Shown here: piece after piece, positions 38,981 to 49,012 of the stretch | Position numbering within the stretch: the first letter of the stretch is position 1 | Layout of the letters: each line of letters begins with the position of its first letter | Source of the DNA: an uncultured Solirubrobacteraceae bacterium | GTDB taxonomy: Bacteria; Actinomycetota; Thermoleophilia; Solirubrobacterales; Solirubrobacteraceae | Reading direction: 5' to 3' | Length of the DNA: 64,000 nt | Assembly (NCBI GenBank): GCA_964483345.1 | Contig: CAZABN010000002.1 | Location: 8,351-72,350 of the forward strand | Made by a program: the position numbers and the translations under genes | The notes under the pieces: generated by a model | Told to the model about the DNA's origin: nothing | The model's database searches: none | Seen by the model: the letters and a program-made list of their open reading frames with translations, nothing else

Positions 38981-39630
38981 TGGGCTCGCTGGACGTCGTC
39001 ACGCTCACCGTCGGACCGTTCCGCGAGAACTGCTACCTGGTGCGGCGGGCGGGTGCTGCCGAAGCCGTGATGGTCGACCCGGGAGACGAGGCCGAGCGCC
39101 TGATCGAGCAGCTCGGGCTGCTCGGTGTGTCGGTCGAGGCGATCCTGCTCACGCACACGCATGTCGACCACGTCGGCGCCGTTGCCGCGCTCGCGCGCGC
39201 CACGGGCGCGCCGGTCTACTGCCCGGCGCTCGAGCGCGAGATCCTCGCCGACATCGACGGCTCGGTCGGCTGGCTGGGCCTGAGCGGGTTCGAAAGTTAC
39301 GACGCTGACGAGCTGCTCGGCGGCGGCGAACATCTCGAGCTGGCGGGCCTGGCGATCGACGTCATCTTCACGCCGGGCCACAGCCCCGGCCACCTCACCT
39401 ACGCGCTGCCCGAACACGAGACGCTCGTGGTCGGCGACGTCCTCTTCCGCGGCTCGGTCGGAAGGGTCGATCTGCCGGGTGGCGACTGGGAGGCGCTGCT
39501 TGACTCGATCGCGACCCTGTTCGACGGCTACCCGCAGCAGACGCTCGTGCTACCGGGCCACGGCCCGCAGACCTCGCTCGAGGAGGAGCGCCGCAGCAAC
39601 CCGTTCCTGACCGAGCTCGCCGCGCGGTGA
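38980..39630 (+). CDS. MBL-fold metallo-hydrolase (glyoxalase II-like)
   Basis: ILLTHTHVDHVGAVAAL (HxHxDH), FTPGHSPGH and VLPGHGPQT. Confidence 0.88.
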   Translation: MGSLDVVTLTVGPFRENCYLVRRAGAAEAVMVDPGDEAERLIEQLGLLGVSVEAILLTHTHVDHVGAVAALARATGAPVYCPALEREILADIDGSVGWLGLSGFESYDADELLGGGEHLELAGLAIDVIFTPGHSPGHLTYALPEHETLVVGDVLFRGSVGRVDLPGGDWEALLDSIATLFDGYPQQTLVLPGHGPQTSLEEERRSNPFLTELAAR

Positions 39631-40856
39631 GCAAGCTCACAGCCCCGCGTGGGACGTTCGACATCCTGCCCGAGCAGGCGAGTGTGCGCGCCGGCGTGGA
39701 GCGCACGGCGAGTGAGCTGCTCGAGCGGGCCGGCTACGGCCGTATCGAGACCCCCAGCTTTGAGGCGACCGAGCTGTTCACGCGCGGCGTCGGCGAAGCG
39801 ACCGACATCGTGCGCAAGGAGATGTACAGCTTCGACGACGGCAGCGGGCGCTCGCTCACGCTGCGCCCGGAGGGCACCGCGCCGGTCTGCCGGGCCTATG
39901 TTCAACACGGCATGCACAAGCTCCCGGCGCCCGTCCGCCTCTACTACCTCTCGAGCTTCTTTCGTGCCGAACGCCCGCAGGCCGGTCGCTACCGGCAGTT
40001 CTGGCAGCTCGGACTCGAGGCGCTGGGCTCCGAGGACCCGGCGGTCGACGCCGAGACGATCGTGCTGCTCGCGACGATCCTCGCCACGCTTGGCGTGACC
40101 GGGGTGCGGCTGCGGATCTCCAGCCTGGGCAGCCCCGCGACACGCGCCGCCTACTCCGAGGACCTCGGAACCTACCTGCGCGCCAACGCGCCGCGCCTCG
40201 CCCCGGCGGTGCGCGAACGCATCGACCAGAACCCGCTGCGCGCGTTCGACTCCGACGATCCGGGCACCCGCGAGGTGATGGCGGGAGCGCCGCGGCTGCT
40301 CGACCGCCTGGAGCGCGAGGACGCCGAGCACTTCGCGGCGGTGCGCGAGCTCCTGACGCGCGCCGGCGTGGCGCACGAGATCGACCCGACGCTCGTGCGC
40401 GGCCTCGACTACTACACGCGCACGCTGTTCGAGTTCACCAGCGACGCCCTCGGTGCACAGTCCGGAGTGGCCGGGGGCGGCCGCTACGACGGCCTCGTCG
40501 AGCAGCTCGGCGGGCCGCCGACGCCGGGCATCGGCTGGGCGGCCGGGATCGAGCGGATCATGCTGGCCTCCGGCGAACATCCGGTGACCGTGGCGGCGGT
40601 CGATGTCTACGTCGCCTTCGAGGCCGGCCGCGCCGATGCCTTCGCGGCGCTGACGGCGCTCCGCGAGGCTGGGCTGGCGGTCCAGATGGAGCTCGGCGGC
40701 CGGTCGCTGAAGGGCCAGCTCAAACAGGCTGACCGTCTCGGCGCGCGCTTCTTCGCGCACGTCGAGGGCGGGTCGGTGCGGCTGCGCGACCTGCTGGCAG
40801 GCACTGAGGAGACCGTCGATGGCCGTGACCTCGTCGATCATGTGGTGCGCTCGTGA
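39627..40856 (+). CDS. hisS: Histidine--tRNA ligase
   Basis: PRGTFDILP..., EMYSFDDGSGRSLTLRPEGTAPVCR, YRQFWQLGLEALG, GGGRYDGL. GTGA overlap with the upstream gene. Confidence 0.95.
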   Translation: MSKLTAPRGTFDILPEQASVRAGVERTASELLERAGYGRIETPSFEATELFTRGVGEATDIVRKEMYSFDDGSGRSLTLRPEGTAPVCRAYVQHGMHKLPAPVRLYYLSSFFRAERPQAGRYRQFWQLGLEALGSEDPAVDAETIVLLATILATLGVTGVRLRISSLGSPATRAAYSEDLGTYLRANAPRLAPAVRERIDQNPLRAFDSDDPGTREVMAGAPRLLDRLEREDAEHFAAVRELLTRAGVAHEIDPTLVRGLDYYTRTLFEFTSDALGAQSGVAGGGRYDGLVEQLGGPPTPGIGWAAGIERIMLASGEHPVTVAAVDVYVAFEAGRADAFAALTALREAGLAVQMELGGRSLKGQLKQADRLGARFFAHVEGGSVRLRDLLAGTEETVDGRDLVDHVVRS

Positions 40857-42634
40857 TGCATCAGCCGGCGCCCAACGAGTACCGCGATCACTGGTGCGGC
40901 GAGCTGCGCGCCGGCGACGCCGGCAGCGACGTCCGCGTGGCCGGCTGGGTCCACCGCCGCCGCGACCATGGCGGACTGATCTTCATCGACCTGCGCGACC
41001 GCTCGGGCCTGCTGCAGCTCGTCTTTCATCCAGACAGCGCCCCGGCCGCCCATGCCGCCGCGCACGACCTGCGCAGCGAGGCTGTGCTCAGCGTCGCCGG
41101 CGAGATCGTGCTGCGCGGCGCGGGGACGGTCAACCCGTCGCTCGCGACCGGCGAGATCGAGCTGGCCGTTCGCGAACTGGATGTGCTCGCGACCTCGCCG
41201 ACGCCGCCCTTCCCGCTCGACGAGGACGTCGGCGTGGATGAGACGCTGCGTCTGCGCCACCGCTCGCTGGATCTGCGCCGCGAGCCGATGCGTGACGCGA
41301 TGGTCCTGCGCCACCGGGTGGCGCACACGATGCGCGAGGTGCTGGAGCGCCACGACTTCCTCGAGGTCGAGACGCCGATCCTGACGGCCGCGACGCCGGA
41401 GGGCGCGCGGGACTTCCTCGTGCCCTCGCGGCTCCAGCGCGGCTCCTTCTACGCGCTGCCGCAGTCGCCGCAGATCTTCAAGCAGCTGCTGATGATGGGC
41501 GGCCTCGAGCGCTACTACCAGATCGCCCGCTGCTTCCGCGACGAGGACCAGCGCGCCGATCGCCAGCTCGAGTTCACGCAGCTCGACATCGAGATGTCGT
41601 TCGTCAACGAGGAGGACGTGCTGCGCATCACCGAGGAGGTGATGAGCGCCGTCTTCGAGGCCGGCGGGTTCACGCTCGCCCCGCCGCCGTGGCCGCGGAT
41701 GTGTTACGCCGAGGCGATCGGCCGCTTCGGCTCGGACCGTCCCGACACGCGATTCGGTCTCGAGCTGCACGACGTCTCGGAGCTCGTGCGAGGCTGCGAG
41801 TTCAAGGTCTTCGCCGGCGTGCTCGAGAGCGGGGGGGTGGTGCGCGCCATCAACGCCGGGGCACGCGAGCTCTCGCGCGCCGAGCAGGACGGCCTGAGCG
41901 AGTTCGTACAGCGCTACGGCGCCAGGGCGGTCGCCCCGATCGCCGTCGGCGACGGCGGCTGGCGCGGCAACCTCGCGAAGTTCTTCAGCGCCGATCAGAT
42001 CGGCGCTGTCAACGCAGAGCTGGGAGCGAGTGACGGGGACCTGTTGCTGTTCGTCGCCGACCGCGCCGCGGTCGCCGCGCAGGCGCTCGGCGCGCTGCGG
42101 CTGGATCTGGCGGAACGCTTCGGCCTGATCGACGGCGCTCGCCACGACGTGCTGTGGGTCGTGCAGTTCCCGATGTTCGAGTACGACGAGGAGGCGGGGC
42201 GCTGGAGCGCGATGCATCACCCCTTCACCGCGCCGGCGCCGGCCGAGGGCTCGACCGAGCTCGACTTCGCGCAGCCCGGCCTGCTGCGCTCGCGCGCGTA
42301 CGACCTGGTCGTCGACGGCGCCGAGCTGGGTGGCGGCTCGATTCGAACGCACACGCCCGAGATCCAGCAGCGCGTGTTCGAGGCGATCGGCCTCAGCGAC
42401 GCGGAGGCGCAGGCGCGCTTCGGCTTCCTGCTCGACGCGCTGCGCTACGGCGCGCCGCCACACGGCGGCATCGCCCTGGGGATCGACCGGATCGTTGCGA
42501 TGATCGCGGGTCGCGAGTCGATCCGCGATGTGATCGCGTTCCCCAAGACCGCGAGCGGATCCGATCCGCTGACCGGCGCGCCGGCGCCGGTCGACGCACA
42601 CACGCTGCGCGAGCTGGGTCTGCGGCCGGCGTAG
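40853..42634 (+). CDS. aspS: Aspartate--tRNA ligase
   Basis: GWVHRRRDHGGLIFIDLRDRSGLLQLVF, FYALPQSPQIFKQLLMMGG..RYYQIARCFRDEDQRADRQLEFTQLD, GGGSIR, PPHGGIALGIDR. Confidence 0.95.
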   Translation: MMHQPAPNEYRDHWCGELRAGDAGSDVRVAGWVHRRRDHGGLIFIDLRDRSGLLQLVFHPDSAPAAHAAAHDLRSEAVLSVAGEIVLRGAGTVNPSLATGEIELAVRELDVLATSPTPPFPLDEDVGVDETLRLRHRSLDLRREPMRDAMVLRHRVAHTMREVLERHDFLEVETPILTAATPEGARDFLVPSRLQRGSFYALPQSPQIFKQLLMMGGLERYYQIARCFRDEDQRADRQLEFTQLDIEMSFVNEEDVLRITEEVMSAVFEAGGFTLAPPPWPRMCYAEAIGRFGSDRPDTRFGLELHDVSELVRGCEFKVFAGVLESGGVVRAINAGARELSRAEQDGLSEFVQRYGARAVAPIAVGDGGWRGNLAKFFSADQIGAVNAELGASDGDLLLFVADRAAVAAQALGALRLDLAERFGLIDGARHDVLWVVQFPMFEYDEEAGRWSAMHHPFTAPAPAEGSTELDFAQPGLLRSRAYDLVVDGAELGGGSIRTHTPEIQQRVFEAIGLSDAEAQARFGFLLDALRYGAPPHGGIALGIDRIVAMIAGRESIRDVIAFPKTASGSDPLTGAPAPVDAHTLRELGLRPA

Positions 42635-42701
42635 CGGGCCGCGCGGGCGTGCCGGGAGGCGGCGCGCGGCGCGCGGGCCGGGTGCGCCGGGCGGCCGCTC
42701 C

Positions 42702-44339
42702 TCAGCCGCTGCCGAGCTGCACCGCCTTGACCACCAGCAGCACCACCGAGACGACGAGGTAGCCGCGCAGCCCCAGCATCGCGGCCTTGCGGCCGGATGA
42801 CCAGACGGCGGGTTCGAGGAACGTCAGTTGCGGCATCGTCCACTGCGCCTTCGGGACGGTTGGGCCCTCGTCGATCACCGTCACCTCGCCGCCGCCGCGG
42901 CCGCTGCGGAGTGTCCAGGCGCCGAACGCCAGCAGCGCCGCCGCGAACGCCCCTCCACCGACCAGCGCGAACTGCGTGACATTCACCCTGGGAAAGACGG
43001 TGGTCGCCATCAGGATCAGCGAGAGCAGGACGAGCACCGCGACGATCACGGTCGCCAGGATGTTCAGCCAGGTCGGGTTGCGCCACGGTCCGAGCACCGC
43101 GCGGTCGTTGCACAACAGCAGCAGGAACACCGTCGCGCTCGGGAGCAGCACACCGGCCAGCGCCTGAACCGAGGTCGTGATCACGCCGAGCGGGGCCCCC
43201 GGGATCAGCACGATCGCGGCGGCGCCCGCGATCAGGCCGGCGAAGATCAGGTAGAAGGACTTGGCATCCGAGAAGCTGCGGTGCAGCGAGCTCTTCGTGC
43301 CGAACATGTCGCCGAAGGCGTAGCTCGTCGAGAGCGTCAGCGCGGCGGCGCCGATCAGCGAGGCGTTCAACAGGACGAGCGCAAAGAACGCTCCGCCAAC
43401 CGATCCCAGCTCGAGCTTGAGCCCGTTCGCGGTGCCGAGCGCGTTCGTGAAGTGGCCGTATAGCGGGGTGCCCTTGAACGCGAACGCCGAGACCGCGATC
43501 AGCGCGCCGGCGCCGATCACCACGACGACCGCGCCGATCCACGTGTCGAGGCGCTCGTAGTTGATCCAGCGCGGAGTGATCCGCTTGTCGATCACGTTGG
43601 ATTGCTGAAAGAACAGCTGCCACGGAGCGACGGTCGTGCCGACGATCGCGATGATCAGCAGGACCGAGGTCGAGTTGGCGCCGCCGGCGATCGAGGGGAC
43701 GAAGAAGTCATGCGCGACCGGGCCGATCTTCGGATGCGCCATGAAGAACAGCGGGATCGCCAGGAGGTTGGCGAACACGAACACGAACATCACGCGTTCC
43801 CAGCGGCGGAAGCTGCCGCTGGCGGTGATCGCGACGAGCAGTACGGCGGCGATCGGCACGGACACGAAGGCGGAGATCCCGAAGTAGGAAAGCGCGAGGC
43901 TGACGCCGATGAACTCGGTGACGATCGTCAGGAAGTTCAGCAGGAACAGGTCGCCGACCGAGAACCAGCCCCAGAAGCGCCCGAACCGCTCGTTGATCAG
44001 GCGTGCGTGCCCGACGCCTGTCACGGCGCCGAGGCGGACGACCATCTCCTGGTTGACGATCAGCACCGGGATCAGCAGCAGCAGCACCCACAGCAGGCTC
44101 GTGCCGTAGTTCTGGCCGGCCTGGGAGTAGGTGGCGACGCCGCCCGCGTCGTTGTCGCCGACCATCACGATCAGGCCCGGGCCGACGATCGCCAACAGCG
44201 CCAGCGCCCGCGCGCGCCAGCTGCGCCGCACCCCGGTGTCGTGCTGGCCGATCGTCCCGAAGGCGCCCTGGATATCGCCGACATGGGCGCTGTCGAGCAC
44301 GGCGCGCTCGCGCTCGGGCGTTGCCGTCATCCTGCTCAC
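42702..44339 (-). CDS. NRAMP/SLC11-family transporter with non-canonical (NRMT-like, probably Mg2+) binding-site residues and a C-terminal 2-TM extension
   Basis: NRAMP fold with GPGLIVMVGDNDAGGVATYSQAGQNYG, where canonical NRAMPs have DPGN. TM6 reads GTTVAPWQLFFQQS, where canonical is GA.VMPHNLYLHS. There are about 100 extra C-terminal residues. Confidence 0.88.
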   Translation of the reverse strand: MSRMTATPERERAVLDSAHVGDIQGAFGTIGQHDTGVRRSWRARALALLAIVGPGLIVMVGDNDAGGVATYSQAGQNYGTSLLWVLLLLIPVLIVNQEMVVRLGAVTGVGHARLINERFGRFWGWFSVGDLFLLNFLTIVTEFIGVSLALSYFGISAFVSVPIAAVLLVAITASGSFRRWERVMFVFVFANLLAIPLFFMAHPKIGPVAHDFFVPSIAGGANSTSVLLIIAIVGTTVAPWQLFFQQSNVIDKRITPRWINYERLDTWIGAVVVVIGAGALIAVSAFAFKGTPLYGHFTNALGTANGLKLELGSVGGAFFALVLLNASLIGAAALTLSTSYAFGDMFGTKSSLHRSFSDAKSFYLIFAGLIAGAAAIVLIPGAPLGVITTSVQALAGVLLPSATVFLLLLCNDRAVLGPWRNPTWLNILATVIVAVLVLLSLILMATTVFPRVNVTQFALVGGGAFAAALLAFGAWTLRSGRGGGEVTVIDEGPTVPKAQWTMPQLTFLEPAVWSSGRKAAMLGLRGYLVVSVVLLVVKAVQLGSG

Positions 44340-44542
44340 CTCCTTTCCGGGTCCGCTCCGTGGGTCGCGGGGCGGGCGCCGTGGAGGTCCCTCAGCCGGA
44401 TGTCAGGTGCTGACTCCAGGTGGGGACGCCGCAGCGCAGCGCCACGCGACCGCTACTTCGCGGGGGTTCGCCGTCTTCGTATCTGCTGGGGTCGTCCACG
44501 GTGTGAAGGTCCTGTCAAGTGCCCGATCCGGGCAGCAAGAGT

Positions 44543-45886
44543 CTACTCGCGAGCGAGCCCGTAGCGGCGCCGCCATTGCTCGGGCAGGGTCAGCTCGAGG
44601 ATGTCGTCGACCGAGACGACGCCGATCGGCCGGGCGTCGGCATCGACGACCGGAAGGGTGATCAGGTTGTAGTCGGTCATCAACCTCGCGACCTCCGGGA
44701 TCTCGGCCTCGGCGCCGACCGAGGGGGCGCTCGCGTCGGCGAGCGCGTCGAGCGCCTGGTCCGGTGAGGCGTGGATCAGCTGGCCGGTGGTGACAAGTCC
44801 GCTGAGCACGCCGCCGGCGTCTGTCAGCAGGATCGCGTGCAGGCTGTCCGCGGCGACGTCGTGCGCACGGGCGGCGGCGATCGCCGTCGCGACCGTGGCG
44901 TCGCGAGGCACCGCGACGAAGTCCGGGCTCATCACGCCGCCCGCGGTCGACGGGTTGTAACCGAGCAGACCCTTGATCTTGCGTTGCTTGGCAAGCGGCA
45001 TCAGGTCCAGCACCGGTAGCCGTCGCTCCTGCTTGATTTCGAGCAGCAGATCGGCGGCGTCGTCGCTCGCCATTCGCGCGAGCACCGCCGCGACCTCGCG
45101 GTCCGAGCGCTGATCGAGGAACTCGAGCTGGTGCTCGTCATCGAGCTCCTCGAAGACATCGGCCTCGAGCTCCTTGTCCTGCCCGACAGCCTCCAGGATC
45201 TCCTCCCCCTCCTCGTGGCTCGCGGCCTCGACCAGATCGGCGATCTGCGCCGGATGCAGCGACGCGATCCGCCGGTGGGCCAGCCGCAGGCGCGACGTCG
45301 GCACGTGCCCGACGAACGGTTCGAGCTGCGGCCACGGGACGAACGCCGGATGGGCGTCCTGATCTTCGCGCAGACGATGCGGCAGCAGCCGCCGCACGCG
45401 CGCGCCAAGGCTGGGGTCGATGCCCGCGACCCGCCAGGCGCCTTCCTGGTGTGTCAGCTCGACCTCACCGGCGCGCACGAGCCGCGCGGTGTTGACGTTG
45501 ATCAGGCTGCGTCCGAGCACGTCCGAGCGCAGCAGGATCTCGCCGGGCCGCCGTTCGAACTGGGCCAGGTTCAGTTTCGTCGTCGAGGTGTGGGCGCCGC
45601 CCGGCTCCAGGCGCGCAATGGCGTTCGCGGGGACGAACAGCAGGCGGCCGCCGATCGCGGCGCGAAGCCCGATCACCGGCGGCAGCGGGTCCGCGAGGTC
45701 GAGTCGCGCCACGAGGTCGTCCACGCGGCCAAGCCGCTCACCGGACGAGTCGAGCAGCGGGCTCCCCGCGAGCGAGGAGAGGTGGAGAACGCCGTCAGGC
45801 ATCGCCGTGCGCAACAGAGTAGTGGGTCGCGGGGTCGAACTGGTGTCGATCCCTGTGTCGCCGCCATGCCGCGCGGCGCGGGGCAC
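44543..45886 (-). CDS. Soluble PRC-barrel + MgtE_N + tandem CBS protein (MgtE cytosolic module with no membrane domain)
   Basis: PRC-like N-terminus (GERLGRVDDLVARLD...). MgtE_N (LHPAQIADLVEAASHEEGEEILEAV...ARMASDDAADLLLEI). Two CBS motifs (VMSPDFVAV..., ...LITLPVVDADARPIGVVSVDDIL). Ends with no TM helices. An alternative start lies at 45802. Confidence 0.85.
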   Translation of the reverse strand: MPRAARHGGDTGIDTSSTPRPTTLLRTAMPDGVLHLSSLAGSPLLDSSGERLGRVDDLVARLDLADPLPPVIGLRAAIGGRLLFVPANAIARLEPGGAHTSTTKLNLAQFERRPGEILLRSDVLGRSLINVNTARLVRAGEVELTHQEGAWRVAGIDPSLGARVRRLLPHRLREDQDAHPAFVPWPQLEPFVGHVPTSRLRLAHRRIASLHPAQIADLVEAASHEEGEEILEAVGQDKELEADVFEELDDEHQLEFLDQRSDREVAAVLARMASDDAADLLLEIKQERRLPVLDLMPLAKQRKIKGLLGYNPSTAGGVMSPDFVAVPRDATVATAIAAARAHDVAADSLHAILLTDAGGVLSGLVTTGQLIHASPDQALDALADASAPSVGAEAEIPEVARLMTDYNLITLPVVDADARPIGVVSVDDILELTLPEQWRRRYGLARE

Positions 45887-45913
45887 AACGCCCGGCCGCG
45901 CATGCCGTGTCCG

Positions 45914-48900
45914 TCAGCTACCCGGCGGGACGATCGTGAAGCGAAGTGACACCGGCGCCGACGGATGGCCGGTGAGGCCGGTCGCGCTCAGCTCCACGGC
46001 GTAGGTCCCGGCGGGGAGCCGGCCGAGCGACGTCTTGCCACCGAAGGCCAGCGCGTTGCCGCCGGCCTGCGCCCGGATCGTCAGCGTGCCGGCGGAGAGA
46101 CTGCGCGTGCAGCGCTGCGCCCTGGGTGCGGCCAGCGCCGGCGATACGCAGCGTCCACCGGCCTTGCGCCCGCCGGTCAGGCGGGCGAAGCTGAGTTCGA
46201 CCTGCGCGGCCTGGTCGAGCGAGAAGGAGAAGGTGGTGCCCAGCGGCAGGCGCGAGCGACGGGCCTTGCGCTCGAGCCATCTCGCCGCCGTCTCGTTCAG
46301 GCCGCTGATCGTCGGGCGCACCGCAACGATCGTGTAACTGGCGGTGAGCGCCGAGCTGACGCCGTTGCTGTCGGTGGCGATGACCGTGAAGCTGTGCGGG
46401 CCGGGAGCGGTGGTGGCGATCGAGGTGCCCGCGGCGTCCGGTCCCGTGCAGCTGGCGAGCGTCGCCGGCGCGCTCGCCGCGCAGCTGAAGGCGGCCGTCA
46501 GCGACTGTCCCCGCGCATAGACGCCACCGGCGGCGGGAGCGCCGATCGCAATCGTCGGCGGAGCGATGACGCTGTAGGTGGCGATCGTCGTAGTGGCGAA
46601 GCCGTTCGCGTCGGTGCTGGTGACGGCGAACTGGTGCACACCGACCGTGGAGGTGTTGATCGCCGCACCGTTGGCGACCGGCGCGGTGCAGCCGTTCGCG
46701 CCCGAGACGGAGGCGGCGCAGGCGTATGAGGCGATCACGCGTTCGCCCTCGGTGTAGGTCGCGCCGGATTGCGGGGAGCCGATCGCCTCGGTTGGCGCGT
46801 AGGCGAAGACGTCACCGGGGTTGGGCGGGCTCGCCCCCGCGAGGCCCGTGACCCGCACGTCGACCGATCCGGAACCCGCGGGGACCGTCGCGACCAGTTG
46901 CGTGGAGCTGAGGTCGGTTACCGACGAGGCGACTTCACCGCCGAACCAGACGGCGGTGTAAGGCGTGAAGCCGCTGCCGTCGACCGTGACCGTCGATCCC
47001 GGTCGCGCCTCGCCGCCCTGCAGCCCGGTGACCACCGGCTGCGCACCGATCGGCGTCGCGCTGGCGGCGCACAGTTGCGGCACGAGCCCGGTCGAGGATC
47101 CGTTGTCGGCGATCGGCGTGCCCAGTCCGGTCACCATGTCGTAGCCGGGGGTGGCGGGGTAGGCGCCGTAGGGGACGGTGCCGTTGAAGTAGCCGCTGTT
47201 GTCGCCGACCGTGACGTCGTTGAACGCGTCGGCGTGCTCGTCGCCGGCGGCGATCTCGTAGAGCAGAGGGTTCAGGAAGCCGAGCGGTGGCCCGGCCGTG
47301 CAGCCGCTGACCGCGCTGTCGCCCGCGAGCGGGGAGTCGGCGAGCGCCGCCACCGCCGCCCAGACCGGTGCAGACGAGCTGGTTCCGCCAAAGGCGGTCC
47401 ACGCGCCCTGGAAGTACGTCACGTAGCCGGTCTCGGTCGAGCCGTTCGCGGCCACGTCGGGCACCTCACGGCAGTACCGCGAGGTCTGGCCGCACGGTGC
47501 CCCGCTGGAGTAGCTGTTGAGCACCCCCGGGACCCCCGCGTCGATCTGGTAGGACGGCATCGCCCAGAGCGTCGAGATGCCGCCGCCGCTCGCGCCCCAG
47601 TAGATGCGGTTCCAGGAGGTCTCGCTCGGCGGTGGCCCGATCGCGTTGAGGTTCGTTCCGCCGACGGCTGTGGCGAGCGGCTGGCTTGCCGGATCGTCAA
47701 CGGCCAGCAGGGGCGCGTTGGGGTCACCCTGTTGCGCGATGTTGTTGAGGTTGTTGTTCCACTCGCTGGCGCAGGACTCCGCGCCCCGGTCTCCCGTCGA
47801 TGCGATGAAGCTCTCGCCCTGCGCCGCCGCCTCCTCGAGCAGTGTCTTCTCGCTCTGCGCAGCGGAGATGTCCTCCTGCTCGCACTCGCCCCACGAGTCG
47901 CTGATCACCTGAGCGTTGTCGGCCGCGACGATCCTGGCCAGGGTGTCGTAGCGCCCCATCAGCGTGTCGGGTCCCTGGTAGAGGTCGACGTTGGCCTCCG
48001 GCGCGAGCCCGATCAGGTCCTGCAGGTCGACCGCCGACTCGGCGGTCGAGATCTTGCTGCCGCCGCCGTCGACCAGCGGCTCGATCGTGATCTGGGCATT
48101 TGTGCCGTAGCACTGCTGGAATGTGGCGAGGTCGGTCGCCTCATCGGCCGAGCTCGCGTAGCTGTCGAGCTCGAGCAGTGCGACGGTCACGCCCTGGCCG
48201 AAATCGCCGTCGGCGTAGAGGTCGTCCATGCCGTACGCCTTGCCGATCTGGTCGATCGTGTAGACGTTCGAGTGGAGAGCCTCGAAGCCGCTGGCGCCCT
48301 GGCAGGGTGCCGGGCCGGCGCCGTTCGGGAACGATTGATCCGCCGCGGCGCGCGCGCGCGGCTTCCCCGCCCGTCTCGGTGCCGGCTTCAGCAGTGGGCG
48401 CACGAGGCCCTGCGGCTGTGCTTGCGGCACGTTGTCCAGGCCCAGCACGTTCTGCACGACCTTCCCGAGCACCGCCGGCATGCGCGGCGCCGCGGTGTTG
48501 GCGTAGAGGCGAACGCCTGAGTGCGTCCGGTAGCTGCGCAGATCGACGTCGAACGCGCGTGAGGCCTGTGACACGGTTGCCGAAACGGGGATCGAGAGCC
48601 CATTCGCGGCCAGCGTCCCTGGCTGCAGACCCTCGGCGCGCAGCGTGCTTCGGAGGGTCGCGACGCCGGCGGGGTCGGCGCCGAAGCGCGCGGCGAACTC
48701 GCCGACGGTCAGGTAGTGGTGGTAGCTCGTCGAGCCCGGGGTCGTCACCGCCGACACGAGCGCCGCGAGACCCGCGGGGTCGCGCGACTTCAGCACAACG
48801 GTCAGCGCGAGGCGGGTCCTCGGCGCGACGGCGCCGATCGCCGCAGCATCGGCGAGCGCCGGCGGCCGCGCGCCGACGACGACGCTGGACGGCGCGTCAC

Positions 48901-49012
48901 TGGCGCCGGCGCTGACGGCGAGGCCGATCAGCGCCAGCGACGCCGCGAGCGCGGCACGCCGAAAATCGCGCAGAACGCGGTTGGCCCGTTTGCTCGGTCT
49001 AAGCCACATCAA
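45914..49012 (-). CDS. Secreted S53 (sedolisin/kumamolisin-type) serine-carboxyl peptidase with IPT/TIG and repeated Ig-like C-terminal domains
   Basis: Signal peptide and a pro-kumamolisin activation region. Catalytic motifs ASTGDRGAE and GGTSSSAPVWAAVAAL. Then an IPT/TIG-like VVTGLQGGEARPGSTVTVDGSGF...VDVRV and two roughly 75-aa internal repeats (…YTEGERVIASYACAAS… / …YARGQSLTAAFSCAAS…). Confidence 0.85.
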   Translation of the reverse strand: MMWLRPSKRANRVLRDFRRAALAASLALIGLAVSAGASDAPSSVVVGARPPALADAAAIGAVAPRTRLALTVVLKSRDPAGLAALVSAVTTPGSTSYHHYLTVGEFAARFGADPAGVATLRSTLRAEGLQPGTLAANGLSIPVSATVSQASRAFDVDLRSYRTHSGVRLYANTAAPRMPAVLGKVVQNVLGLDNVPQAQPQGLVRPLLKPAPRRAGKPRARAAADQSFPNGAGPAPCQGASGFEALHSNVYTIDQIGKAYGMDDLYADGDFGQGVTVALLELDSYASSADEATDLATFQQCYGTNAQITIEPLVDGGGSKISTAESAVDLQDLIGLAPEANVDLYQGPDTLMGRYDTLARIVAADNAQVISDSWGECEQEDISAAQSEKTLLEEAAAQGESFIASTGDRGAESCASEWNNNLNNIAQQGDPNAPLLAVDDPASQPLATAVGGTNLNAIGPPPSETSWNRIYWGASGGGISTLWAMPSYQIDAGVPGVLNSYSSGAPCGQTSRYCREVPDVAANGSTETGYVTYFQGAWTAFGGTSSSAPVWAAVAALADSPLAGDSAVSGCTAGPPLGFLNPLLYEIAAGDEHADAFNDVTVGDNSGYFNGTVPYGAYPATPGYDMVTGLGTPIADNGSSTGLVPQLCAASATPIGAQPVVTGLQGGEARPGSTVTVDGSGFTPYTAVWFGGEVASSVTDLSSTQLVATVPAGSGSVDVRVTGLAGASPPNPGDVFAYAPTEAIGSPQSGATYTEGERVIASYACAASVSGANGCTAPVANGAAINTSTVGVHQFAVTSTDANGFATTTIATYSVIAPPTIAIGAPAAGGVYARGQSLTAAFSCAASAPATLASCTGPDAAGTSIATTAPGPHSFTVIATDSNGVSSALTASYTIVAVRPTISGLNETAARWLERKARRSRLPLGTTFSFSLDQAAQVELSFARLTGGRKAGGRCVSPALAAPRAQRCTRSLSAGTLTIRAQAGGNALAFGGKTSLGRLPAGTYAVELSATGLTGHPSAPVSLRFTIVPPGS

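Follow-up and report, generated by a model that had tools for sequence, protein, structure and literature searches.

The closest described counterparts of the locus considered here are the NRAMP-related magnesium transporters (NRMTs) and the MgtE channels. Shin et al. (2014, PLoS Genet, PMC4072509) named the NrmT clade and reported that most nrmT genes adjoin a gene for an N-terminal cytoplasmic domain of MgtE, whose role they speculated to be either cytoplasmic feedback regulation or that of a metal chaperone; of the markers of Mg2+ specificity, they considered the M-box riboswitch the best. Ramanadane et al. (2022, eLife) defined NRMTs by a DxxG-TxxA/T signature, as opposed to DxxN-AxxM in Nramps. 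Their E. lenta protein, EleNRMT, carries Mg2+ and Mn2+ without H+ coupling, has the two histidines of transmembrane (TM) helix 6b replaced by W and N, and requires Thr224 for the transport of Mg2+ and far less for that of Mn2+. We have analysed a stretch of 64,000 nucleotides (nt; G+C ~71%), here called the window, from contig CAZABN010000002.1 of an uncultured soil bacterium of the Solirubrobacteraceae. On its reverse strand the gene of an MgtE-like partner protein lies upstream of an nrmT gene, and between the two is a 212-nt leader with a candidate small open reading frame (ORF).

Two further systems serve as points of reference. The cytosolic gate of the T. thermophilus channel TtMgtE (Hattori 2007/2009; Maruyama 2018, PMC5882242) binds Mg2+ at sites that include Mg4 (D91/D247), Mg5 (D226/D250), Mg6 (D95), Mg7 (E59), Mg2 (E258) and Mg3 (D259). 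The mgtL and mgtQ elements are acidic, ribosome-destabilising short ORFs that tie the expression of Mg2+ transporters to Mg2+-sensitive translation; mgtQ is an upstream ORF between mgtC and mgtB and controls a stem-loop that sequesters a ribosome-binding site.

How does the window locus compare? It shares with the nrmT pairs of Shin et al. the gene families, the gene order and the orientation, with the partner upstream, and the same feedback proposal applies. The pairing of nrmT with an MgtE fragment has therefore been known since 2014, and the novelty implied by an earlier note on this DNA does not hold. The differences lie elsewhere. Clostridial examples of Shin et al. stand under M-box riboswitches and the window locus does not; their partner was called a small protein, with no mention of a PRC-barrel; and the window transporter has two extra TM helices and is preceded by a gap that contains the leader ORF. 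EleNRMT was studied without a partner, and the later NRMT papers that we searched mention neither CBS domains nor a partner protein.

The transporter and its MgtE-like partner

The features of the gene pair are as follows (window coordinates, reverse strand, unless a locus is named).

42702..44330, reverse strand: gene of the NRMT-clade SLC11 transporter, 542 amino acids (aa) from ATG 44330, stop codon 42702-42704
42705..42992, reverse strand: C-terminal extension of the transporter, residues 447-542 (~96 aa), two extra TM helices and a loop
43617..43640, reverse strand: TM6 motif G-T232-T-V-A235-P-W237-Q (TxxA in place of AxxM; GTTIAPWM in EleNRMT)
44139..44150, reverse strand: TM1 metal-site motif D61-A-G-G64 (DxxG in place of DPGN), from the translation, aligned with GNDAGG of EleNRMT
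44331..44542, reverse strand: 212-nt intergenic leader of the transporter gene, between partner and transporter genes
44543..45802, reverse strand: partner gene (soluble PRC-barrel + MgtE_N + two CBS domains), 419 aa from ATG 45802, stop codon TAG 44543-44545
44546..44593, reverse strand: conserved basic C-terminal tail of the partner, LTLPEQWRRRYGLARE, at the position of the MgtE plug helix
44588..44917, reverse strand: CBS pair, residues ~296-405 (Pfam, PDB alignment)
44951..45259, reverse strand: MgtE_N domain, residues 182-284 (Pfam, PDB alignment)
45710..45790, reverse strand: PRC-barrel match, residues 5-31 of the 419-aa protein
L081 2644-3996 and L083 2640-4001: Eggerthellaceae partner genes with a hydrophobic C-terminal helix

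The ORFs as originally listed extend further upstream (transporter 42702-44339, partner 44543-45886). For the transporter, ATG 44330 is the most likely start, because a strong Shine-Dalgarno (SD) sequence, GGAAAGGAGGTGA, precedes it and homologues have 542 aa; for the partner it is ATG 45802, because the partner homologues have 419 aa. One transporter homologue is 100% identical, and close relatives are labelled Solirubrobacteraceae.

By its sequence and predicted fold, the transporter is a member of the NRMT clade of SLC11, with all published signature residues present. The earlier note had read an NRAMP fold with an altered metal site and a likeness to the E. lenta protein, and both parts of that reading stand: the motifs D-A-G-G and G-T-T-V-A-P-W-Q are exactly as claimed, the Pfam Nramp family matches at 6.8e-81, and the best match by sequence as well as by fold is EleNRMT. 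The protein falls far below the cut-offs of the NCBIfam MntH model (103.6 versus 430) and of the TIGR nramp model (67.6 versus 272.5). In a PDB sequence search EleNRMT (7qia) came first with E 1.7e-57 and ~33% identity; classical Nramp, MntH and DMT proteins and the plant NRAT ranged from 4e-19 to 1e-8 (MntH/DMT from 4e-19 to 1e-13), none being better than 3.7e-19. Foldseek comparison of an AlphaFold2 (AF2) model (pTM 0.79) gave 7qia as best match (TM-score 0.89, root-mean-square deviation 2.8 A, E 2.8e-17), with MntH/DMT-type matches no better than 1.5e-11.

The window transporter shares with EleNRMT not only the binding-site signature but also the loss of the residues of the H+ pathway. The pathway histidine of the TM6 motif is a tryptophan, and the TM6b stretch reads APWQLFFQQSN here, APWMMFFNQSN in EleNRMT and MPHNLYLHS in Nramps, so that the TM6b histidines are replaced by the non-protonatable W and Q. 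The equivalents of E133 and Q379 of EleNRMT are kept as E139 and Q389. By analogy, the transporter most likely imports hydrated Mg2+ without H+ coupling and would also pass Mn2+; a preference of this sub-clade for Mg2+ over Mn2+ is something that we infer.

EleNRMT (~430-440 aa) lacks a C-terminal extension, and residues 447-542 of the window transporter are without counterpart both there and in other proteins of the EleNRMT clade (431-445 aa). The extension of roughly 100 aa with two TM helices that had been claimed for the transporter is indeed present, at ~96 aa. Its hydrophobic helices lie at ~460-465 and 524-532 by hydropathy (conservation over 81 sequences) and at 451-477 and 512-539 in the AF2 model, and a conserved W-x-M-P-Q-L-T-F-L is found in the loop before the last of them. 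On these grounds the extension would raise the transporter to a predicted 13 TM helices. The long form is general among the best 80 genome loci that we surveyed: all 80 align to residue 516 or beyond, most to ~540, at 62-80% identity, and the set spans Solirubrobacterales, Acidimicrobiales, Mycolicibacterium, Nocardia, Streptomyces, Chloroflexota, Dormibacteraeota and Acidobacteriota.

The partner has the domain set that had been proposed from the sequence, namely PRC, MgtE_N and two CBS domains, and no pore. PRC scores 24.5 bits against a Pfam cut-off of 21.2, and this family (PF05239) matches 40 of 40 partner homologues, with a best E of 1.2e-8; a second beta-rich segment, poorly modelled, follows the match and reaches ~residue 128. 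MgtE_N matches at 1e-19 and is followed by the two CBS domains. Cytosolic domains of MgtE are the top PDB matches by sequence (2yvy, 5e-23; 8gpv, 8e-23) and also by Foldseek (8gpv, at 1.5e-18, and 2yvy; 1e-18 to 1e-16), on an AF2 model that is confident only at residues ~180 to 410. No TM segment was detected in the partner, and since its chain ends 16 residues past CBS2 without plug helix or pore we regard it as a relative of the sensor module, not as an MgtE channel. It differs from TtMgtE further by ~170 extra N-terminal residues with the PRC-barrel and by the basic tail with its LPExWRRR motif; P407, W410, R411, R413, G415 and A417 of the tail are invariant in the 40 homologues.

Are the Mg2+ ligands of the MgtE gate retained? 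The TtMgtE ligands were mapped by combining the published site list with a HMMER alignment to PDB; the numbering offset is sound, because all six alignable positions are acidic in the crystal construct. D215, D247, D248 and D251 of MgtE_N align with E59, D91, D92 and D95 of TtMgtE, and in the CBS pair D400 and E403 align with D247 and D250, and N379 with D226. Within the common MgtE_N and CBS-pair fold, the partner thus keeps the acidic ligands of Mg4 (D247/D400), Mg6 (D251) and Mg7 (D215), and one ligand of Mg5 (of the pair N379/E403). Among the 40 homologues, the majority of these positions vary little or not at all (D248 and D251 invariant, D247 nearly). Across an alignment of 12 partners from distant clades, the motif DDAAD, which holds D247, D248 and D251, is unchanged in all 12, and the positions of D400 and E403 are acidic throughout. 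By analogy with MgtE, the partner is most likely a soluble, dimer-type sensor of Mg2+, and possibly of a nucleotide, derived from the MgtE gate and carrying an additional N-terminal PRC-barrel region.

Could the missing pore be an artefact of assembly or frameshift, or the mark of a decaying mgtE pseudogene? We found no support for this and reject it with near certainty. The best 120 of the 6,734 related proteins at E<=1e-5 nearly all have 419 aa and an identical domain set, and the 212-nt gap is too small for the pore domain and codes for no MgtE TM segments; together these exclude an artefact. A TM domain encoded in frame elsewhere, which the earlier note had named as the sign of such an artefact, was not found, and there is no second MgtE-like segment in the window; nor did any other of the refuting observations listed in that note arise. 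In independent assemblies of close relatives the partner gene has the same ends, and its third codon positions diverge faster than the gene as a whole.

Linkage of the two genes, for which the earlier note had proposed a co-occurrence check, is strong. Of the best 80 genome loci, 74 have a full-length partner gene in the same direction upstream of the transporter; three of the six exceptions have less than 400 nt of upstream DNA, so that the rate among informative loci is 74/77, spanning Solirubrobacterales, Acidimicrobiales, Mycobacteriales, Streptomyces, Chloroflexota, Dormibacteraeota and Acidobacteriota. At most 600 nt separate the genes in 69 loci, and five loci have 1.6-2.1 kb of intervening DNA. 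An independent set of metagenome loci, picked out by the leader motif described below, has the partner gene upstream in 46 of 47 cases among the matches listed. NRMTs of Paraeggerthella and Xiamenia, which are 87-91% identical to the EleNRMT construct, are preceded by a PRC + MgtE_N + CBS gene (450-453 aa) that ends 4 nt before the NRMT gene or overlaps it by 1 base. Close relatives of EleNRMT therefore have the partner gene directly upstream, yet the structural and transport work on NRMTs has been done without it.

The TM segments of carrier and partner are distributed in a complementary way. In the 12-partner alignment two Eggerthellaceae proteins run past CBS2 into a hydrophobic stretch, AKIVGGIIGAVLFLVLYTMALFQII, whereas the ten partners of long-form transporters (Actinomycetota, Acidobacteriota, Dormibacteraeota) largely keep the tail core P-E-x-W-R-R and end soon after it. 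Thus the partner of the EleNRMT clade has a hydrophobic C-terminal helix and its short NRMT (431-445 aa) no extension, while the soluble partner of the window goes with an NRMT that has two extra TM helices. Judged by hydrophobicity of the sequences, this is a hint of contact between the two proteins at the membrane. Because the partner in this clade is soluble by nature and the transporter has extra helices, binding studies, Mg2+ titrations and complex structures should be easier to attempt.

A leader ORF upstream of nrmT and of CorC-type genes

Alignment of the intergenic gaps exposed an invariant CCGCGAAGTA, of which the window has a single exact copy. The elements of the leader, and the loci in which related leaders were found, are the following.

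44338..44343, reverse strand: SD sequence GGAGGU of the transporter gene, predicted to be sequestered
44383..44394, reverse strand: leader stop codon TGA and anti-SD, GGGACCUCC; anti-SD GACCUCC at 44383-44388
44392..44499, reverse strand: candidate leader ORF, 35 codons, GTG start, MDDPSRYEDGEPPRSSGRVALRCGVPTWSQHLTSG; homologous small ORFs in other loci
44455..44463, reverse strand: invariant CCN-CGA-AGU (Pro-Arg-Ser) core, in all 33 genome leaders
44500-44520, reverse strand: TTTACA/TTCACA repeats, also in L005, L007, L008, L027 and L028
44530-44538, reverse strand: degenerate copy of a -10-like element, TGCTGCCCG / TTGCTGCCC
L003-L048, L062 and L071: genome loci with an nrmT-linked leader
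L084-L203: type-C and metagenome loci (e.g. L087 3615-3638, L098, L105, L113)

The leader ORF of the window encodes MDDPSRYEDGEPPRSS..., with an acidic and proline-containing N-terminal half followed by the Pro-Arg-Ser core of rare codons: CGA accounts for 3.6-3.9% of Arg and AGT for 3.0% of Ser codons in neighbouring genes, and both are present in 33 of 33 leaders. These 33 genome loci, all from Solirubrobacterales, have the ORF 60-360 nt upstream of nrmT, even where the partner gene sits 1.6 kb away or is absent, and most of the metagenome matches listed have it as well. No equivalent was found in the loci from Acidimicrobiales, Mycobacteriales and Streptomyces. A long gap is usual in the clade (212 nt here, median ~290 nt). 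Its conservation exceeds that of the flanking genes: in two relatives (L204 and L205) the gap is 96.7% and 92.0% identical to that of the window, as compared with 89-94% overall and 75-86% at third codon positions for the flanking genes.

Two types of leader precede nrmT. Type A has ~30-35 codons and the motif ...[YH][QH]D[SG]E[LP]PRSS..., with indels that are in frame, of 3 nt each; type B has ~22 codons, reads MDREQPRSTQP.AR... and has a strong SD before its ATG. A third type was found when we scanned JGI metagenomes with a 24-nt degenerate leader motif and identified the genes downstream, which yielded at least 120 stretches. Among the 120 matches listed, 47 are followed by a long-form nrmT and 52 by a gene for a CNNM + CBS + CorC_HlyC protein; 9 of the remainder lie at contig ends and 12 are apparent chance matches. 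The best PDB matches of the CNNM + CBS + CorC_HlyC proteins are CorC/CorB Mg2+ transporters, and one of them has been deposited as Solirubrobacteraceae. Their leaders, type C, read M-[NSTI]-DDEELPRSS..., have 15-45 codons and lie directly upstream of the transporter gene, with no SD in between; among the matches listed, the leader stop overlaps the transporter start as GTGA or ATGA in 50 of 52. Such an overlap needs a maintained frame and is, at the level of sequence, the strongest evidence that such leader ORFs are translated. The peptide motif [DE]-x-[LQP]-P-R-S-[ST] is common to the three otherwise differing types. Third codon positions have a weak excess of variation.

A conserved leader ORF is common, within one bacterial family, to an importer gene and to an exporter-type gene for the same ion. 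CNNM/CorB/CorC proteins have a fold unrelated to that of NRMTs and are presumed to act in export; the same motif (M-x-DDEELPRSS) stands before their genes in Solirubrobacteraceae, where the coupling is by stop-start overlap and not by an SD hairpin. The leader ORF has no Rfam match, and we found no description of it, of its sharing with CorC genes or of the clade-specific architecture in the literature searched, which excludes subscription journals.

Downstream of the window ORF, the SD of nrmT is predicted to be masked. The sequence ACCUCC pairs with the SD in 16 of 16 type-A leaders, around a variable inner hairpin, and RNAalifold on a MAFFT alignment of these leaders returned this helix only (6 pairs, 16/16 sequences), with one compensatory change from A-U to G-C. 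Local hairpins over the SD range from -22 to -36 kcal/mol, the SD has a predicted mean unpaired probability of 0.07 (0.01 in the window), and the whole window leader folds with z = -2.0. RNAalifold on type-B leaders was uninformative. In these leaders (L011-L048 and metagenome type-B leaders) the stretch that separates the SD of the leader itself from its AUG (GGCUGGG or GGCCGGC) is the complement of codons 8-12 (CCCAGCC or GCCGGCC). The two covary, pointing to a helix around the leader start with CGAAGUA in its loop.

Upstream of the ORF, an extended -10-like element, TGnTAnnnT (e.g. CTTGCTACCGTT), lies 40-90 nt from the Pro-Arg-Ser core in 127 of 149 loci, as compared with 1.8% of random 140-nt stretches, and precedes all three leader types. 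The window copy is degenerate, and the leader here may therefore be read through from the partner gene. Tandem direct repeats TTTACA/TTCACA, ~11 nt apart (e.g. GGTTTACACCTGGTTTACACG-ATG), abut the start of type-A leaders and resemble binding sites of OmpR/PhoP-type response regulators.

The short acidic and proline-containing ORFs mgtL and mgtQ of Salmonella and E. coli likewise stand just upstream of an Mg2+ transporter gene, and mgtQ, like the window leader, is located between two genes and is followed by a stem-loop that sequesters, or in the window is predicted to sequester, a ribosome-binding site. The leader family of the window shares no sequence similarity with them, belongs to another phylum and is longer (19-45 codons), and its invariant Pro-Arg-Ser core of rare codons has no counterpart there. 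By a published criterion, intrinsic ribosome destabilization (IRD) calls for at least 4 of 6 residues D, E or P near the N-terminus; the window leader (EDGEPP) and type C (DDEELP) each reach 5 of 6. The presence of the motif upstream of CorC genes suggests, by analogy, a device that responds to Mg2+ in the manner of mgtL and mgtQ. If the leader does sense Mg2+ through translation, the mgtL/mgtQ principle would extend from Enterobacteria to Actinomycetota, and the leader would explain how nrmT is regulated where the M-box is absent.

A proposed feedback gate, a possibly translated leader and their alternatives

From the family memberships, ligand positions, linkage, conserved leader ORF and SD helix observed here we infer an interaction between the two proteins, the direction in which it would regulate uptake, the substrate preferred and a sensing of Mg2+ by the leader. 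At high cytosolic Mg2+ the acidic sites between MgtE_N and the CBS domains would fill and the partner would close up, as the gate of MgtE does. The closed partner could then dock, via its basic tail or the PRC region or both, on the cytosolic face of the transporter or on its extra C-terminal helices and inhibit uptake, as a negative feedback. Expression of the transporter would be controlled separately, by the 212-nt leader: with a leader ORF upstream of the SD-sequestering helix, translation of nrmT may depend on Mg2+-sensitive passage of the ribosome, as for mgtL and mgtQ. In the CorC type, only ribosomes that finish the leader would reinitiate, so that the exporter would be made when Mg2+ is sufficient. 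We lean towards this combined view of a known nrmT and MgtE-fragment pair with the partner as feedback gate and the leader as an mgtL/mgtQ-like control.

A wider version is more doubtful and is put forward tentatively. It takes the leader family of Solirubrobacteraceae and Solirubrobacterales as a ribosome-based Mg2+ sensor with two opposite outputs, stop-start coupling to the CNNM/CorC exporter at high Mg2+ and an SD-sequestering switch before the NRMT importer, and the PRC-MgtE_N-CBS protein as a detachable gate that would dock on the 13-TM NRMT at its pair of extra TM helices. Were the gate to prove detachable in this sense, the NRMT would be the first SLC11 carrier to have taken its regulatory subunit from a channel.

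Several results weigh against a gate and an mgtL/mgtQ-like leader. The plug helix with the Mg2 and Mg3 ligands (E258, D259) and the five-TM pore of MgtE are absent from the partner, the position of the Mg5 ligand D226 is Asn, and residues 1-170, though beta-rich, have AF2 pLDDT values below 55; with this low confidence we make no claim on their fold beyond the Pfam PRC match. No natural fusion of partner and transporter occurs among ~130 loci or the best 120 homologues listed. In the sole published functional test of such a pair, Acp2976/2977 of A. capsulatum, NrmT rescued an Mn2+ defect fully and an Mg2+ defect partly, and co-expression of the partner brought no added rescue for Mg2+ (PMC4072509); as an inhibitory gate is not expected to improve rescue, this is weak counter-evidence and no contradiction. 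As to the leader, typical type-A (QDSELP) and type-B (DREQP) sequences reach 3 of 6 D, E or P, below the IRD criterion. In a thermodynamic model, a ribosome footprint placed at three leader positions did not consistently free the SD, and for that reason we do not claim a direction for the regulation of nrmT. The M-box (ykoK, RF00380), which in Firmicutes occupies this regulatory position ahead of nrmT operons, had no match here at the gathering threshold or at E<=5, nor was one found in 11 related loci.

How do other explanations fare against this evidence? The long-form transporter might be mainly an importer of Mn2+ (or of a broader set of divalent ions), with a partner that responds to Mn2+ or to some other signal. 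The A. capsulatum rescue, obtained with an MgtE-like neighbour and no M-box, points this way, as do the transport of Mn2+ by EleNRMT, the lack of an M-box here and the presence of an Acidobacteriota locus (L063, 66% identity) within the same long-form set. We think it unlikely nonetheless: the transporter has the full DxxG/TxxA signature, including the Thr whose loss abolishes transport of Mg2+, not of Mn2+, in EleNRMT; the partner keeps MgtE Mg2+ ligands; the leader motif is common to CNNM/CorC genes, an Mg2+ family, and not to known Mn2+ genes; and neither a yybP-ykoY nor another Mn2+ element was found in the locus. The partner, for its part, could be an Mg2+ buffer or chaperone, or the sensor of another target, such as the ribosome or gene expression via its PRC-barrel, and merely be co-regulated with nrmT. 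RimM has a PRC-barrel fold too, a metal chaperone was among the proposals of Shin et al., whose assay showed no effect of co-expression, NRMTs are active alone, other genes lie between the pair in the five genome loci with 1.6-2.1 kb gaps, and nrmT in this clade appears to have a promoter-like element and leader of its own. The 96% linkage seen across phyla, the adjacency or overlap of the two genes in Eggerthellaceae, the complementary distribution of TM segments and the descent of the partner from a domain that is a transport gate in MgtE speak for the gate, and we give a buffer, chaperone or unrelated sensor little credence.

For the leader, the contending explanation is an untranslated structured RNA, riboswitch-like or protein-binding, in which the small ORF is incidental. 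It would account for the invariance of CGAAGU as nucleotides, synonymous positions included, for the conserved helices (anti-SD/SD, and the covarying type-B spacer with codons 8-12) and for the weak excess of third-position variation. Against it stand the stop-start overlaps of the CorC type, kept as [AG]TGA in 50 of 52 matches listed despite lengths of 15-45 codons, the strong SD before the type-B ATG, the in-frame indels of type A and a peptide motif that recurs in three otherwise differing types. We consider an incidental ORF improbable; a structured RNA and a translated ORF are not mutually exclusive.

Other searches and the genomic neighbourhood

No Rfam family scored above chance in the locus, in the 11 related loci or in five CorC-type loci. 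Sub-threshold matches to Guanidine-II (22.2 bits, E 0.23) and Guanidine-III (19.2 bits, E 0.84) inside the partner gene, at 45685-45767, are set aside as chance. No sigma-70 consensus promoter was found within 42400-46200, and two terminator-like matches in the same region, both inside the transporter gene, are within chance expectation. There is no CorC gene in the 64-kb window. The gene pair is flanked by the gene of an S53/kumamolisin-like peptidase and by aspS/hisS. The former (45914-49012, reverse strand) encodes a 1032-aa secreted peptidase of S53/pro-kumamolisin type with TIG domains, and hisS and aspS lie at 39627-42634 on the forward strand. These neighbours have no apparent functional tie to the Mg2+ genes, and their order is identical in the relatives L204 and L205.

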